32,000 nt of DNA from Aciduliprofundum boonei T469. Its GTDB lineage: Archaea; Thermoplasmatota; Thermoplasmata; Thermoplasmatales; Aciduliprofundaceae. The position numbers were made by a program, and so were the translations under genes. Location of the stretch: positions 810,001-842,000 of the forward strand of contig NC_013926.1 of the NCBI RefSeq assembly GCF_000025665.1. Direction: 5' to 3'. The notes below the pieces were generated by a model that was not told where the DNA came from, did not search any database, and saw nothing but the letters and a program-made list of their open reading frames with translations. This document shows positions 1 to 5,438 of this stretch, one piece after another (position 1 is the stretch's first letter; each line of letters starts with the position of its first letter).

Positions 1-2439
1 GATTTAAATTTTGAATTGTATGTTATCCAAGGAGATGGGAGAGCGGAGCTTATAAAAAAAGGAGATATAAGGGCTAAGAGTTTAAAAAGAAGAATACCTT
101 CCTATTCGGTTATATTTTCTAAAGAGAAAGAATTGCCCATAAAGACCTGTCCTATCTGTGGTAATGTCTTGCAGGAAGAGAATGTACCAATCTTAGTAGT
201 TAAAGGAAAAGGTGGCACATATGATCTCTCATCTCCAGAAGGCTCATACAAACTTCCTGTTCTCTATTGTCCAAATTGCGGGCATATAGAATATGGCACA
301 ATAATCAAAGAATGTCCAGTGTGTGGAAATATAATGGAAAGAAGATTCTCTCTTAAGCCAGAGTTATCCGCTCTGGGCGCTTATATCCATAGTTTTGATG
401 CACCTCCCTCTCTAATGTTCCTTCACCAGAAGAGATTTATTTTGAAGTATTTTATGGAAAATATTTTGAAGGTTTATGGTAAATATCTTTTTAAAAATAC
501 GAGATATCTTTCTCATAAAGTACCTGAAAGTATAGATGAAGTTAAGAGAGCTGCACTTTTGATAAAGAAAAGAGGCACTATAAATAAATCCGATATAAAA
601 AAGATCAGAAAGTTGAGAAATGTAGTTGATAATATTGTTAGATATGTAGAAATTTATGGAACCACTGATGATTACAAAGAAGAGGATGAATGGCTATTGT
701 GGAAGAATAACGAAGTTAAAAAAAGAATTAGAGAATTAGTAGAGAATGGTAAGATATCTTATGCTTTCCATGTTCTCTATGGGCATATCATTGGAGACAT
801 TTCGCATTTTTATATACCAATAAAAAGGAAAACTCCATTAGTTCTTGAACCAGTTAGAGATGCCATCTTGATGCTTTATCCGTTTATGCCTGCTTTTGTG
901 GAAGAGAATTTAGGAAGGATAAATGTTGAGAAATTTTCATTAAGCACTACTGAAGCTGAGGAGATAAGCACTATGGAAATCATAAGGGATTTCGTAAAGG
1001 TTGTCAGAAAGTATAGGGAGAAGAAAGGTATTCCGAGAAAAGAGCCACTAAAAAAAGTCGTTTTTGTAACTTCCTATGCTGATGAAGTAAATTCCCTAAA
1101 GAGTTCTATTTTGAATTTAGAGAATGTGCTTATATTTCAAGTTGTGGAGGATTGGGATGAGATGGAAATAGAGATAGAACCCAATATGGAAGAGATAAGT
1201 GCATCTTATCGTGCCTGGGCGCCTAAAATAGGTTTCTTGCTTCGTAGGAAAAATGTTAGGGAAGTTCTAGATGCCATGGAGAAGGGGGGATACACTCTTG
1301 GAATTGAAGGCTTCATAATTAAAATAACTCCAAAGATGATAAATTATATAAAGAAGGTTCCAGAGGGCTATGACCATATTGAATTTGAGTATGGAGATAT
1401 ATATATTCAAAACGAAAGAGATGCTACTACAAAGAGAATTAGGTTGGTTCGGGAGGTAATAAGGAGAATAAATATTATGAGAAAGGATATTGATATGGAT
1501 TTCGATGATTTAATTGATGTAAGTATTTCTGGAGATAGTGAAGCTATAAAGATGATAAGGGGCTACGATGATGAGATTAGAGAAAAATGTTTGGCTAGAA
1601 ACATTGAATTTAGCTATACGGAATACGGATACATTGTAGAGTGGCCTATAATGGGATACAGAATTACAATAGGTATAAATCCACTGTTTAAGCGTTGGGT
1701 TATAAAGGCGTTTAAGAGTATACCCGGTATAGATGATTACAGAGCAGAGCTTTTGTTTAAAATGGGGTATGGGAGTATATATGAATTGATGGAAGCTGAG
1801 CCAGAGCAGATAGCTGAGGCCACAGGTATGCCTCTGAAGCTTGTAAATGAGCTTATTGATTACCTCTACTCTACGGCTTTCAAACCTAAAAAAGAAAAAA
1901 ATAAGGAGTATTGCCCGTTCTGTGGTACCGAGCTCACACCTGATGATGATTTTTGTCCAAGATGCGGGGCACCTATAAGGGTTAAGATGGAAGAAAGAAA
2001 GATGAAGAAGGGTAATGTTTACTTATTTTTGGGAGAACTTGGGGATATGCTTGAAAGGATACCAGAGGAGCTTATGAAAGAGAAAAAGCTGCTAATAACA
2101 AAGGATAACCCTGATGAGGTAAAGAAGTTGTACAACCTTAAAAATACCGAAACCGTGTGGATCTCTTATGTGCCATTCGGAGATGCAATAAAGCCAAAAG
2201 ATTTGGAGAAATTAAAAGGTAGAGTTTTAAAATTCTTGGAGAAAGGAGGAAAGCTCATAATAGCAGATTGCTTTGATCTCTTGTTGGCCATAAATGGCCT
2301 TGACAAGCTTCTTCAGATGATTGGTGAGATGAAAGAAAAATTAAAGGAGAAAGAGGCATATTTGTTCTTCACCATTGAAGAATTAGAAGCCTTTGAAATG
2401 GGGGAGATAATGAAATATGTTGATGGAGAGGTCAAATAA
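1..2439 (+). CDS. Large multidomain protein, probably 5'-partial: Cys4 zinc ribbons + degenerate IleRS-like anticodon-binding/C-terminal region + helix-hairpin-helix + zinc ribbon + DUF835-like C-terminal domain
   Basis: The track ORF 16..2439 starts at TTG with no SD, and the frame stays open back to base 1, so the N-terminus probably lies upstream of the window. Zinc-ribbon motifs: CPICG/CPNCG/CPVCG. DEWLLW-(36 aa)-DISHFYIPIKRK-...-LYPFMPAFVEEN matches the spacing of DRWIL..NWYIR..APFxPFxxE in the class Ia IleRS anticodon-binding domain. KGIPRKEPLKKVVFV, IEPNMEEISASY..APKIG and LVREVIRRINIMRKDIDMDFDDLI resemble the archaeal/eukaryal IleRS C-terminal extension. The expected KMSKS position reads IMERR. 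IPGIDDYRAELLFKMGYGSIYEL is HhH-like; CPFCG..CPRCG is a zinc ribbon. LLITKDNPDEV..WISY..AIKPKDLEKL..IIADCFDLLLAINGLDKLL is DUF835-like. Confidence 0.55.
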   Translation, partial: DLNFELYVIQGDGRAELIKKGDIRAKSLKRRIPSYSVIFSKEKELPIKTCPICGNVLQEENVPILVVKGKGGTYDLSSPEGSYKLPVLYCPNCGHIEYGTIIKECPVCGNIMERRFSLKPELSALGAYIHSFDAPPSLMFLHQKRFILKYFMENILKVYGKYLFKNTRYLSHKVPESIDEVKRAALLIKKRGTINKSDIKKIRKLRNVVDNIVRYVEIYGTTDDYKEEDEWLLWKNNEVKKRIRELVENGKISYAFHVLYGHIIGDISHFYIPIKRKTPLVLEPVRDAILMLYPFMPAFVEENLGRINVEKFSLSTTEAEEISTMEIIRDFVKVVRKYREKKGIPRKEPLKKVVFVTSYADEVNSLKSSILNLENVLIFQVVEDWDEMEIEIEPNMEEISASYRAWAPKIGFLLRRKNVREVLDAMEKGGYTLGIEGFIIKITPKMINYIKKVPEGYDHIEFEYGDIYIQNERDATTKRIRLVREVIRRINIMRKDIDMDFDDLIDVSISGDSEAIKMIRGYDDEIREKCLARNIEFSYTEYGYIVEWPIMGYRITIGINPLFKRWVIKAFKSIPGIDDYRAELLFKMGYGSIYELMEAEPEQIAEATGMPLKLVNELIDYLYSTAFKPKKEKNKEYCPFCGTELTPDDDFCPRCGAPIRVKMEERKMKKGNVYLFLGELGDMLERIPEELMKEKKLLITKDNPDEVKKLYNLKNTETVWISYVPFGDAIKPKDLEKLKGRVLKFLEKGGKLIIADCFDLLLAINGLDKLLQMIGEMKEKLKEKEAYLFFTIEELEAFEMGEIMKYVDGEVK

Positions 2440-2802
2440 TTATTTAATTTCGATTTCATTGTTTCTGATGAGCACATAATCTCCATCTTTTATCTTGGAG
2501 ATATCAATTTTATCCACTGTGGGTATATTTGCTATTATTGCTCCTGCAGCTACAATAGTTTCTGCTCTTTCGAGAATGAATGCTTTGGGCAAATTGTGAT
2601 AATATTTTAGTCCGTAGATGGTGTAAGATCCCACAGTGCTTCCTGCACCCCACGGAAACACTACGATTTTATTTTTTATATCTCTCCCTAAAATCTGTCC
2701 TCTTTTTTCGTCAATATCACTCAAAATTACTAGGGGTTTATCAAATTTCACTACTTCTCCTTCTACAAATCCATTCACAATACTTCTACCTTTCAAAGTC
2801 AT
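2440..2802 (-). CDS. Aconitase-X swivel-domain protein (DUF126); likely phosphomevalonate dehydratase small subunit
   Basis: 120 aa. DUF126-like pattern VVFPWGAGSTVGSYTIYGL..PKAFI..AAGAIIANIPTV. A 4-nt overlap (2799-2802) with the upstream DUF521 gene indicates translational coupling. Confidence 0.75.
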   Translation of the reverse strand: MTLKGRSIVNGFVEGEVVKFDKPLVILSDIDEKRGQILGRDIKNKIVVFPWGAGSTVGSYTIYGLKYYHNLPKAFILERAETIVAAGAIIANIPTVDKIDISKIKDGDYVLIRNNEIEIK

Positions 2803-3959
2803 TCTACCACACTCCGGAGAAGGGTGTATAGGTCCTCTACTATCACTTCTGCTCCACCGAATTTATCCTTGCTCAAGTAGAATGCCGCTTTTCCTGATGT
2901 GGTTCCTATTTTGTGGAATATCTTACCTGCATTGCTAACTACAACGCATGTATCAACCATAACTTTTCCACCAAAATTTTCTATTATTTTGACTAAATCT
3001 TTGTGGTTTTCCCACACGCTTCTGGCAGCAAAGATCCAAAATTCCACGCCTTTCTTTTTTTCCTTTCCTTTCACAAACTCTGCAATTCTTCTCAACTCTA
3101 TAGGGGATACATGAGGACAGCCTATTGCCACTAACTCTACATCCACTATTTTTTTCATTTTTTCTATTTCATCTTTTTCTATGCTTATTCTCTCTACCTC
3201 GTCTTGAAGGGCATTTTTGTATTCTGGAGTAAAACTCTCAACATGGTACATTGCTATGCTTCCTGATGCAGCCATAGCTGCACCCATGAGCTTGAAATCA
3301 TCGTAATTTCCCTTAATTTTCAGGTATGGTATTCCCTGCACCTCTTTTCCGATGAGCAGCCCTAAGAGTGGGAAATCCTCACCCTCAGGTTCAAAATCTA
3401 ATTCCACAATATGCGTTGCTTTTCTCTCTTCATCCAAATGCAACCCGTAGTTTGGTGTCTTGCCTATTATTGCAGAGGCAAGGGCTGTTACAGCTCCTTC
3501 TCTGTTGGTTCTTGCCCCGATTATTGAATTTGCGTATATCACAGCAGAACTCTCTGCCCAAGCGATGTGCTCTCCAAATTTTGGAACATTATCGTAATAA
3601 TAAGGGGTGCAGGTGGCGGTTGTTTTAACACCCATAGTTTTGTAAGCCTTTATTATTTCCATCTGTTTTTTGAATAATTGGGTATCAACTTGAAGGGCAT
3701 CAAGGTATCTATCGTCAAATGCTAAAGGATTTAGAGTAGTTTTTACTGCAACTTTTACATCTTTTAAGGAGTTAAGAAAATGTAGGCCAGCATCTCCAAT
3801 TGTGTTGTAGGATACCCCCGATATTTGTGCAGAGGTTATGGGTATTAATTTATCCGCTCCGTATATTTCCCCGATTTTAACAAGAATGCTCATCATCTTT
3901 GCATAATTTTCTCCCTTTTCCCCACTTAAAATTCTCTCCTCATCTTTTGTTAGATGCAT
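2799..3959 (-). CDS. Aconitase-X catalytic-domain protein (DUF521); likely phosphomevalonate dehydratase large subunit
   Basis: 386 aa. DUF521-like with three conserved Cys contexts (TATCTPYYY, AIGCPHVSPIEL, VDTCVVV) that fit Fe-S ligands. Paired with the DUF126 gene, as in the archaeal AcnX type II enzymes. Confidence 0.75.
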   Translation of the reverse strand: MHLTKDEERILSGEKGENYAKMMSILVKIGEIYGADKLIPITSAQISGVSYNTIGDAGLHFLNSLKDVKVAVKTTLNPLAFDDRYLDALQVDTQLFKKQMEIIKAYKTMGVKTTATCTPYYYDNVPKFGEHIAWAESSAVIYANSIIGARTNREGAVTALASAIIGKTPNYGLHLDEERKATHIVELDFEPEGEDFPLLGLLIGKEVQGIPYLKIKGNYDDFKLMGAAMAASGSIAMYHVESFTPEYKNALQDEVERISIEKDEIEKMKKIVDVELVAIGCPHVSPIELRRIAEFVKGKEKKKGVEFWIFAARSVWENHKDLVKIIENFGGKVMVDTCVVVSNAGKIFHKIGTTSGKAAFYLSKDKFGGAEVIVEDLYTLLRSVVE

Positions 3960-3968
3960 GTTAGCACC

Positions 3969-5438
3969 TCAATGCCTGAACACCCTGAATCCGGTAAACA
4001 GCATTGCCATATTGTTTTCATCTATTGCCTCTATAACCTCTCTATCTCTCTTTGAACCTCCTGGCTGAATCACAGCCGTTATCCCAACCTTGGCTGCCTC
4101 ATCTATCGCGTCTCTAAATGGGAAGAACGCGTCAGAGGCCATCACAGCGCCTTTGGCTCTATCACCTGCTTTCATAGCTGCTATCTTTACAGAATCAACA
4201 CGGCTCATTTGACCTGCTCCTACACCTACCAAAGCTTCGTTCTTAGCAAAAACTATTGCGTTGCTTTTCACATACCTAACAACGCTCCAGGCGAATATTA
4301 AATCACGCATCTCTTCCTCGCTAGGCAATCTTTTAGATACACATTTTGCCTCTTCTAATCTTTTAGTGTCCCAGTCTTGAACTAATAATCCCCCGTCTAT
4401 CCTTCTCAAATTCCACCCCTCTTTTTTCCATTTTTTGACTTTTATTATCCTGATATTCTTTTTTTTCTCTAAAATCTCTAAGGCATCTTGAGTGAAATCA
4501 GGGGCAATTAGAACCTCGATAAACAATTTTTTCATCTCCTTTGCTGCCTCTTCGTCTATCCTTTTATTCGAAGCCACAATGCTGCCGTATGCGGATATTG
4601 GATCTCCCTCCAGAGCTTTCATATACGCCTCTTTGATATCTTTACCCAGAGCTGCACCGCACGGATTTGCATGCTTTATTATAGCCACAGCAGGTCTCTC
4701 AAATTCCATAACTATATTCCACGCAGCATCCATATCATATAGATTGTTGAATGATAATTTTTTCCCGTGCAACTGCTCCCATTCCACATTTCCATCCATA
4801 TAAAGCGCTCCTCTCTGATGCGGATTCTCCCCATACCTTAGCTCCATTTTTTTCTTTGAATAGTACAGGAAATGTTCAGGCATACCATCGTAAAACTTGT
4901 TCCAGAATGCATTATAAATCATAGTGTCATAAGAGGCAGTTAATGCAAAGGCCTCCAGTGCGTATCTCCTGCGAAGTTCCTCGTTTATCTCTCCCTTTTC
5001 CATTGCATCCATAACTTCTTTGTACTGAGAGGGTGAGGATATCACAAGCACTCTTTTGTAGTTCTTTGCGGCTGCACGGAGAAGGGCTACGCCCCCAATA
5101 TCAATATTCTCGATCATATCTTTTTCGTTTCCTATATTCTTCTCAAAGGGGTATAGGTTCACAACCACAACATCTATACCTTTTAGATTGTATTTTTCCA
5201 GATCCTCATTCTTCTCTGCTAAAATTGCTCCATGTATTGCAGGATGTAGTGTCTTTACCCTGCCATTTAAAATTTCAGGATATCCCGTTATCTCTTCTAC
5301 AGAAATTGCCTTTATTTCTCTTTCCTCCAAAAATTTCTTAGTGCCACCTGTTGCAACAATCTCGTATCCTTTCTTGGCTAAGAATTTTGCAAAATCTTCC
5401 AGTTCTTTTTTATCGGAAACGCTAATTAGTGCTCTCAT
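3969..5438 (-). CDS. purH: Bifunctional AICAR formyltransferase / IMP cyclohydrolase
   Basis: 489 aa. N-terminal MGS-like domain (SVSDKKELEDFAK..VATGGT..LNGRVKTLHPAIHGAILA) followed by an AICARFT domain (YGENPHQ, IIKHANPCG, VIQPGGSKRD). Confidence 0.9.
   Translation of the reverse strand: MRALISVSDKKELEDFAKFLAKKGYEIVATGGTKKFLEEREIKAISVEEITGYPEILNGRVKTLHPAIHGAILAEKNEDLEKYNLKGIDVVVVNLYPFEKNIGNEKDMIENIDIGGVALLRAAAKNYKRVLVISSPSQYKEVMDAMEKGEINEELRRRYALEAFALTASYDTMIYNAFWNKFYDGMPEHFLYYSKKKMELRYGENPHQRGALYMDGNVEWEQLHGKKLSFNNLYDMDAAWNIVMEFERPAVAIIKHANPCGAALGKDIKEAYMKALEGDPISAYGSIVASNKRIDEEAAKEMKKLFIEVLIAPDFTQDALEILEKKKNIRIIKVKKWKKEGWNLRRIDGGLLVQDWDTKRLEEAKCVSKRLPSEEEMRDLIFAWSVVRYVKSNAIVFAKNEALVGVGAGQMSRVDSVKIAAMKAGDRAKGAVMASDAFFPFRDAIDEAAKVGITAVIQPGGSKRDREVIEAIDENNMAMLFTGFRVFRH

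Follow-up and report, generated by a model that had tools for sequence, protein, structure and literature searches.

A few paralogues of aminoacyl-tRNA synthetases are known to have traded catalysis for regulation, examples being HisZ and the domain of GCN2 that resembles histidyl-tRNA synthetase (HisRS). Here we describe a gene that overlaps the first base of a 32,000-nucleotide stretch of the Aciduliprofundum boonei T469 genome (hereafter the window; G000:C1:810001-842000 of a 1.487-Mb single-contig genome) and that is well supported, by sequence comparison and predicted structure, as a full-length, catalytically dead copy of isoleucyl-tRNA synthetase (IleRS) with a degenerate Rossmann core, a shrunken CP1 insertion, the anticodon-binding domain ARD1 and type-2 C-terminal domains. 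Three groups of IleRS have been distinguished, namely IleRS1, IleRS2 and the archaeal clade IleRS-A, and archaea hold both IleRS2 and IleRS-A (PMC13752280). In the IleRS2 of P. megaterium the anticodon-reading residues were defined by mutagenesis in 2026: N647, F651, S713 and R721 read A35/U36, while Q961, R964, K965 and L969 make up the G34 pocket, and the substitutions R721A and R964A abolish charging (PMC13752280). Our literature searches (on DUF835, on pseudo-synthetases and IleRS paralogues, and on the IleRS of Methanomassiliicoccales) returned no description of an IleRS bearing the C-terminal tail considered below or of dead derivatives of such an enzyme, and we found no literature report of a class Ia IleRS turned to regulation, or of an inactivated KaiC domain joined to an IleRS with a housekeeping role.

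The reading frame is open on the forward strand from window base 1 to a TAA stop at 2437-2439 and contains every motif quoted in the original prediction, a reading of the window's letters that had proposed an IleRS-derived pseudo-synthetase, its catalytic site dead or detached, fused to a helix-hairpin-helix (HhH) motif, a zinc ribbon and a DUF835 domain. That prediction had also noted that a frame open to base 1 might continue upstream, and it does: fetching and translating the upstream sequence placed the whole gene at G000:C1:809416-812439 (+), encoding 1007 amino acids from a GTG start 585 nt 5' of window base 1, and an alignment of 33 homologues showed the same start position in use. The window thus cuts the gene and holds its 3' part (1..2439, +; 2439 nt; residues 196-1007 and the stop). 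Homologues fall into 37 clusters of ~1000 aa with 42-100% identity and a like architecture. A Pfam scan of the full protein matched Anticodon_1 (residues 424-548, E 1.8e-14), the type-2 IleRS C-terminal domain DUF5915 (residues 581-752, E 5.7e-11), HHH_5 (residues 766-815, E 4.9e-5, slightly under the Pfam cut-off), a zinc ribbon (residues 832-854, E 2.9e-7) and DUF835 (PF05763; residues 882-989, E 1.9e-17, 63.8 bits vs a threshold of 33.1), and gave no match to tRNA-synt_1 over the 1007 residues. Similarly, the IleRS model TIGR00392 scored the full protein at 16.6 bits vs a curated cut-off of 621.4, over residues 400-473 only. These Pfam matches, together with the hhalign comparisons and the lost motifs described below, uphold the proposed origin, dead site and fusion; of the three Pfam families that the original prediction had named for a check, Anticodon_1 and DUF835 match and tRNA-synt_1 does not.

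The resemblance to IleRS extends well beyond the anticodon-binding region. Profile-profile comparison of the family with nine IleRS (hhalign) gave a probability of 100% and E 4.7e-48, aligning residues 74-762 with IleRS residues 152-1052, and a profile of the 33 homologues matched P. megaterium IleRS2 (PDB 8c8v) in two stretches, one of which spans the first CP1 knuckle. An AlphaFold model of the full protein (predicted local distance difference test score, pLDDT, 84.7) led Foldseek to IleRS2 8c8v at E 1.8e-39. Model residues 1-514 superpose on the cores of MetRS and LeuRS, both class Ia enzymes, with Z scores of 21.6-23.9, the best match being to MetRS (Z 23.9, root-mean-square deviation 3.0 A over 334 residues of the predicted structure), and in this model the class Ia fold begins at residue 1. 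The residues ahead of the anticodon-binding region had been described as three zinc knuckles rather than a Rossmann fold; they are instead three of the four CxxC motifs inherited from IleRS, and the Rossmann core around them superposes at Z 23.9. Specifically, C100/C103, C245/C248, C285/C288 and C300/C303 align, profile to profile, with the four CxxC motifs of archaeal IleRS, and all eight of these Cys are invariant in the 33 homologues. From the alignments and the model, the CxxC pairs are inherited structural knuckles, putatively zinc-binding, within a degenerate Rossmann core. The first of them, C100xxC103, lies upstream of the window, and the other three (C245xxC248, nt 148-159; C285xxC288, nt 268-279; C300xxC303, nt 313-324; all +) sit in the second part of the shrunken CP1/CP2 insertion, which occupies window positions 1..324 (+) as delimited by hhalign and the invariant Cys. 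The second half of the degenerate Rossmann (HUP) fold follows at 325..675 (+), placed by hhalign, family columns and the class Ia fold match. As for the anticodon-binding module that had been pictured as detached from its catalytic domain, the module is present, but it is not detached, since the whole IleRS body remains, with residues 74-762 homologous.

Within this body the catalytic motifs have been lost. Upstream sequence, to which the original prediction had looked for a possible HIGH/KMSKS enzyme, does supply a Rossmann core, but both HIGH and KMSKS are gone. The HIGH region reads YSYPIYDSLSPVILDEL, without a conserved His or Gly across the 33 homologues. The KMSKSxGN motif was aligned by hhalign to x-L-x-K-K-R-G (residues 381-387), where the second Lys and the Gly alone persist; hhalign and the family columns place this KMSKS-equivalent loop, here L-I-K-K-R-G (residues 382-387), at nt 559-576 (+), with L382 and K384 found in at least 90% of homologues and G387 invariant. 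The pentapeptide IMERR (residues 306-310; nt 331-345, +), previously taken for the KMSKS position, is put by the profile alignment in the segment after the fourth knuckle ('M.RVPDVLDVWFDSG'). The editing motif WTTTPWT, intact in nine of nine IleRS compared, is replaced in the family by Y-F-[ILV]-x5-7-P-x-G. Furthermore, CP1 has been shortened from ~200 to ~140 residues (~60 fewer) vs IleRS, and the conserved IleRS core blocks that align to residues 249-284 and 311-345 are shortened and made up of unrelated residues. Taken together, the fold match, the inherited knuckles and the loss of the HIGH, KMSKS and editing motifs point to a whole, catalytically dead IleRS body.

GluQRS and EpmA are synthetase paralogues that perform different reactions, and the remnant Rossmann pocket with its LxKKRG loop might likewise serve some other acyl-adenylate or transfer reaction. 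The persistence of the Rossmann fold, the conservation of a basic, glycine-ended loop at the KMSKS position and the purifying selection on the N-terminal part (see below) are all compatible with a surviving enzyme; however, zero HIGH residues survive, the editing motif is gone, the core blocks at residues 249-284 and 311-345 have been shortened and altered as described, and much of the catalytic region has been lost from the homologues of one family, f52. It is therefore quite improbable, in our judgement, that the protein is still an enzyme.

The fusion to DUF835 was to the original prediction an unfamiliar architecture; the combination of HhH, zinc ribbon and DUF835 is not peculiar to this protein, as the same tail is also found on intact IleRS of related Thermoplasmata. 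A search of 401 genomes of the phylum with the full 1007-aa protein as query returned close homologues in the same family together with weaker matches (E 1e-33 to 1e-49) that begin in ARD1 and reach into the tail; the frames holding these weaker matches are 1386-1562 aa long. Tailed IleRS at loci L031-L034 are 1286-1420 aa long when counted from the first Met and match tRNA-synt_1 at E ~1e-126 and DUF835 at 103-115 bits; PPYTTGxIHLGT, xMSKS and WTTTPWT are present, and the proteins end in HhH-Zn ribbon(-HhH-Zn ribbon)-DUF835. In four of four genomes checked (Methanomassiliicoccales/Thermoplasmata) the tailed IleRS is the sole TIGR00392 match above the cut-off. A scan of one genome per species with a four-sequence tail alignment as query confirmed 154 tailed-IleRS loci, mostly in Methanomassiliicoccales and other metagenome-assembled genomes of Thermoplasmata, and a word-index search with the tail alone returned the close family only and not the tailed enzymes. 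The tails of the tailed IleRS and of the dead protein align, and a C-terminal signature, YR(A/Q)W..KI..LL...G.Y.LGIEG, is common to the dead and the tailed proteins and absent from the IleRS of the order to which A. boonei belongs. The possibility raised at the outset, that the gene encodes nothing more than the organism's IleRS with an addition at its C-terminus, thus holds for the Thermoplasmata relatives and not for the present gene. Among the tailed enzymes themselves, L032, L033, L034 and loci L037-L113 depart from the canonical signatures, reading H-[LIVM]-G-T for HxGH and P/A-MSKS for KMSKS, and they retain an intact editing motif.

A canonical ileS, whose presence elsewhere in the genome the original prediction had thought worth checking, lies 645 kb from the dead gene at G000:C1:164750-167209 (-) (L003:901-4011) and scores 981 bits against TIGR00392. 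This active IleRS matches 8c8v, the IleRS2 of P. megaterium, at 1028 bits, compared with 672 bits for the tailed type. All 23 of the 23 active IleRS recovered from the order are untailed proteins of 949-1041 aa with PPTANG-x-PHxGH and KMSKS, and a separate IleRS2-like enzyme is found in the host genome and in every sampled genome of the order giving a match; other Thermoplasmatota mostly have PPYTTGxIHLGT. By these motifs and scores the charging enzyme of the order is IleRS2-like, which suggests that the type of IleRS was replaced at the base of the order; the tailed type may be IleRS-A. The idea that the active IleRS is a bacterial xenologue was considered and withdrawn, since archaea hold both IleRS2 and IleRS-A (PMC13752280).

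In a tree built from the shared anticodon-binding and C-terminal region, the dead proteins form one clade (support 100) that adjoins the tailed clade and lies far from the IleRS of their own order. The approximately unbiased (AU) test, run on 35 rows under LG+G4 with a test group named after the first tree had been seen, rejects a clade of the dead proteins plus the own-order IleRS (delta log likelihood, lnL, 78.6, p 0.0017). A recent duplication of the genome's own ileS was ruled out by the signature motifs, the tree and the AU test. We regard descent from a tailed IleRS, and the loss of its activity, as well supported on sequence grounds.

When 91 genomes of the order were searched with a profile, the dead protein was recovered in several forms. 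Proteins of ~1000 aa with DUF835 were found in 18 of 20 genomes of family f1, and frames of ~1090-1100 aa with DUF835 in the one genome each of f53 and f54; f3 has it in 15 of 16 genomes as proteins of ~920-930 aa without DUF835, and f52 in 4 of 26 as stubs of ~690 aa, likewise without DUF835, while the same search found it in 0 of 25 genomes of f2. The f3 versions (L023, L024, L180) stop after the zinc ribbon, and little is left of those of f52 (L179, L181) apart from a CxxC remnant and three parts that all dead versions have in common, namely the C-terminal IleRS domain, HhH and a zinc ribbon. Comparison with a congener gave an overall ratio of nonsynonymous to synonymous change (dN/dS) of 0.10 at dS ~1.1, with values of 0.05 for the C-terminal IleRS domains, 0.04 for the HhH and zinc ribbon, 0.04 for DUF835 and 0.10-0.18 for the N-terminal remnant and ARD1. 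Such substitution and conservation patterns indicate that the dead copy is under purifying selection in five families. A decaying pseudogene or an annotation artefact without function could account for the lost catalytic motifs and for a remaining protein that differs among lineages, but the 1007-codon frame is intact, dN/dS is ~0.10 at dS ~1.1, conservation is full-length over at least 37 clusters in five families, and the fold is predicted with confidence. Both the selection and the conservation data, as read from sequence, contradict this explanation, which we regard as excluded and give next to no weight; in all probability the dead copy persists because it serves a second job, one that is not enzymatic.

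What that job might be is suggested by the anticodon-reading residues. The helical anticodon-binding domain ARD1 (Pfam Anticodon_1), with N406, Y410, S463 and R471, occupies window positions 676..1095 (+; Pfam and residue mapping), and the type-2 IleRS C-terminal domains (DUF5915; ARD2/INS/ARD3), with N686, R689, K690 and M694, occupy 1096..1695 (+; Pfam and the 8c8v profile match). The P. megaterium residues were mapped onto the dead protein through HMMER and MAFFT alignments, the register of N647 and F651 being set by MAFFT and the 'LWNVxxF' motif. Both charging-critical arginines are kept, R721 as R471 (32 of 33 homologues) and R964 as R689 (33 of 33). S713 (S463) and N647 (N406) are likewise conserved in 33 of 33, F651 is replaced like for like by Y410 in 33 of 33, K965 corresponds to K/R690 (K or R in all 33), and L969 corresponds to M/L694, which is mostly M or L. 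The remaining residue, Q961, corresponds to N686 and is N in 33 of 33 homologues, whereas it is Q in 63 of 63 active IleRS that have a residue at that column. Six of the eight reading residues are therefore kept (counting K965 as K or R), one is changed like for like and one, Q961, has become a fixed N. This pattern favours the view that an anticodon loop like that of tRNA(Ile) is still being read, perhaps with an altered wobble preference, and it strengthens the role of tRNA-binding sensor or regulator suggested by the original prediction, which we consider plausible.

As to the tRNA genes of the genome, the sole tRNA-Ile(GAU) gene found by aragorn with introns allowed is an intron-bearing one at G000:C1:797819-797943 (-), ~11.5 kb upstream of the dead gene. 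The program found two CAU tRNAs only, so tRNA-Ile2(CAU) may have been missed or miscalled.

The tail that follows the IleRS body begins with an (HhH)2 domain (1696..1881, +), recognised by HHH_5 and by a match of the family profile to the N-terminal HhH domain of RadA (2bke, E 6.9e-4; PRK04301 weakly); in the tailed IleRS enzymes, the segment homologous to this domain matches HHH_5 at 6.6e-16. It continues with a C4 zinc ribbon (1903..1980, +; Zn_Ribbon_1, E 2.9e-7) in which all four Cys (C833, C836, C847, C850) are invariant, and ends with DUF835 (1996..2436, +; PF05763, domain model and Foldseek), predicted to be an inactivated KaiC/RecA-like domain without a Walker A motif. The model of this domain (pLDDT 94.7) was matched by Foldseek to KaiC (E 1.4e-6), FlaH (3.3e-6) and RecA (2zri, 1.8e-5). 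After strand 1 the domain reads YLFLGELGDM, and there is no GxxxxGK[ST] (Walker A) there. DUF835 has been listed as 'iKaiC' (PMC5847659), and the KaiC/FlaH/RecA-like fold combined with the missing Walker A fits this published label. In the genome (1.49 Mb) the KaiC-type ATPase family PF06745 is matched 24 times, in ~20 reading frames, and there are at least five other DUF835 genes, two of them membrane-anchored forms, so potential partners for the domain are plentiful. One other DUF835 gene is a frame of 1148 aa that begins with a P-loop ATPase-like motif, GPAGIGKS.

The likeness of the tail to RadA raises the alternative of a DNA-binding regulator, in which the tail would bind DNA and the dead IleRS body would sense isoleucine or tRNA so as to control genes for translation or amino-acid metabolism. 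The match to the RadA N-terminal HhH (2bke, with PRK04301 weakly), the resemblance of the DUF835 fold to RecA, the position of the HhH and zinc ribbon among the most constrained parts of the protein (dN/dS 0.04) and a short divergent promoter region common to the gene and its neighbour asnS would all suit such a regulator. On the other hand, the tail is also found on the housekeeping IleRS of many species, where extra tRNA contacts are the simpler reading; the Pfam scan showed no winged-helix or other specific DNA-reading domain; and isoleucine sensing is unlikely because erosion of the Rossmann core has reached the motifs of its amino-acid pocket. A role of this kind accordingly strikes us as improbable.

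The divergent neighbour is asnS, encoding AsnRS (G000:C1:808041-809333, -; L002:8041-9333; NF003037, 525 bits), whose nearer end lies 668 nt upstream of window base 1, leaving an intergenic region of ~80 nt between it and the dead IleRS gene. The pairing is kept in f1, f3, f52 and f54, but several f1 genera and the tailed-IleRS loci of Methanomassiliicoccales do not have it. Rings are a common assembly of KaiC/RecA-like domains, and one could picture the protein as a structural scaffold or partner subunit for translation enzymes in an archaeal multi-synthetase assembly, possibly with AsnRS, in which the IleRS body would be a platform for protein-protein contacts, the KaiC-like domain would be a module for oligomerisation, and no specific tRNA binding would take place. 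The asnS neighbour, with its pairing kept in four families, and the purifying selection that still acts on the N-terminal remnant (dN/dS 0.10-0.18) lend this some weight. Nevertheless, both charging-critical arginines are kept in 32-33 of 33 homologues, which a pure protein scaffold would not require, the pairing with asnS fails at the loci just named, and the KaiC-like domain is missing in f3 and f52, and we therefore hold a scaffold to be unlikely, though not negligibly so.

On its other side the dead IleRS gene meets genes of the opposite strand. Its TAA (window 2437-2439) abuts the reverse-strand stop of the gene for the small subunit of aconitase X (AcnX; 2440-2802, -), with no intergenic base between the two and no room for a terminator hairpin. 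Window positions 2440-5438 (-) hold this small, swivel subunit (120 aa), the AcnX large subunit (386 aa; PF04412, E 2.9e-139) and an open reading frame of 489 aa that resembles PurH, as read by eye from its sequence. Throughout f1, synteny between the AcnX pair and the dead IleRS gene is kept.

We favour, with somewhat better than even confidence, the reading that the protein is a catalytically dead descendant of a tailed archaeal IleRS whose present role is to bind tRNA(Ile) as an adaptor or sensor, with the inactivated KaiC domain linking it to its partners. We infer the tRNA binding, the partner and the output from the retained residues and domains. According to this proposal, the ancestral tailed IleRS would have had a second role that needed both tRNA recognition and the tail; an IleRS2-like enzyme would then have taken over charging in the order, and the tailed gene would have lost catalysis while being retained for the second role. 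What survives would be the scaffold with its stabilising zinc sites, the residues by which ARD1 and ARD3 read the anticodon, and the tail. The protein would bind tRNA(Ile) by its anticodon loop without charging it, the HhH/zinc-ribbon part would give additional, unspecific contacts to nucleic acid, and the inactivated KaiC domain would either dock the complex onto other KaiC-type proteins or oligomerise. It is from the combination of tRNA(Ile) binding of this kind with docking through the tail that a role as adaptor or sensor would follow.

Several observations weigh against this proposal. Because the whole family carries N in place of Q in the G34 pocket, the target may be something other than tRNA(Ile)GAU, and the conserved reading residues would in any case attest to constraint rather than to the identity of a ligand. 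With a dN/dS of 0.18, ARD1 taken as a whole changes more quickly than the C-terminal domains. DUF835 has been lost in f3 and f52, and f52 has also lost most of the N-terminal body; coupling to KaiC cannot be essential to a function common to all versions, because those of f3 and f52 are without DUF835. No signalling partner is named by the gene neighbourhood. Finally, the pseudo clade sits on long branches and the tree does not fix its exact attachment point, and for this reason the shared tail makes a better case than the tree for a tailed IleRS as ancestor.

A broader and more speculative extension, which we advance only tentatively, is that the tailed lineage as such has a conserved additional role that persists after catalysis is lost, in which it reports the state of tRNA(Ile), or delivers tRNA(Ile), to the KaiC-type networks that have been proposed as archaeal signalling hubs. 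If true, this would amount to an archaeal counterpart of GCN2-type tRNA sensing, and the dead copies would be natural separation-of-function mutants that make the role testable. The homologues form a graded natural series, from the intact tailed enzyme of the sister orders through the dead, full-length tailed protein and the dead protein without the KaiC-like domain to the stubs of ~690 aa, and this series of erosion points to the HhH, the zinc ribbon and the C-terminal domains that read the anticodon as the parts with retained function. The series offers ready separation-of-function variants for a possible moonlighting role of archaeal IleRS as a link between tRNA(Ile) and KaiC-type signalling, and it also points to the replacement of a charging enzyme by a different type of IleRS within Thermoplasmatota.

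The known systems to which the protein can be compared are of four kinds. With type-2 IleRS (P. megaterium 8c8v, T. thermophilus 1ile) and IleRS-A it shares fold and domain order (HUP, CP1 zinc knuckles, ARD1 and C-terminal domains) and most of the anticodon-reading residues, but it is without HIGH, KMSKS and the editing site, has the extra tail and reaches only 16.6 bits against TIGR00392. The tailed IleRS of Methanomassiliicoccales and other Thermoplasmata are homologous to it in the body and along the whole tail and have an identical domain order; in these enzymes the HUP domain is intact and both xMSKS and the editing motif are present, whereas the dead protein has lost all catalytic motifs, and most of them carry two HhH-Zn ribbon units where the dead protein has one, along with a shorter CP1. 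In common with the 'iKaiC' DUF835 proteins, it has the Pfam family above cut-off and a KaiC-like fold without a P-loop, but in those proteins DUF835 follows receiver or PAS domains, and a fusion to a synthetase is not in the survey (PMC5847659). The closest functional analogy is the HisRS-like domain of GCN2, in which a dead synthetase body, thought to bind tRNA, is fused to a signalling domain. GCN2 is eukaryotic, its dead body is of class II HisRS origin and its output is an active protein kinase, whereas here a class Ia IleRS is joined to an inactivated KaiC-type fold. Conservation of the reading residues, together with the fusion of a signalling-type domain, lends indirect support to the analogy, by which the dead IleRS may sense tRNA in the manner of GCN2 and pass the signal to a fused output.

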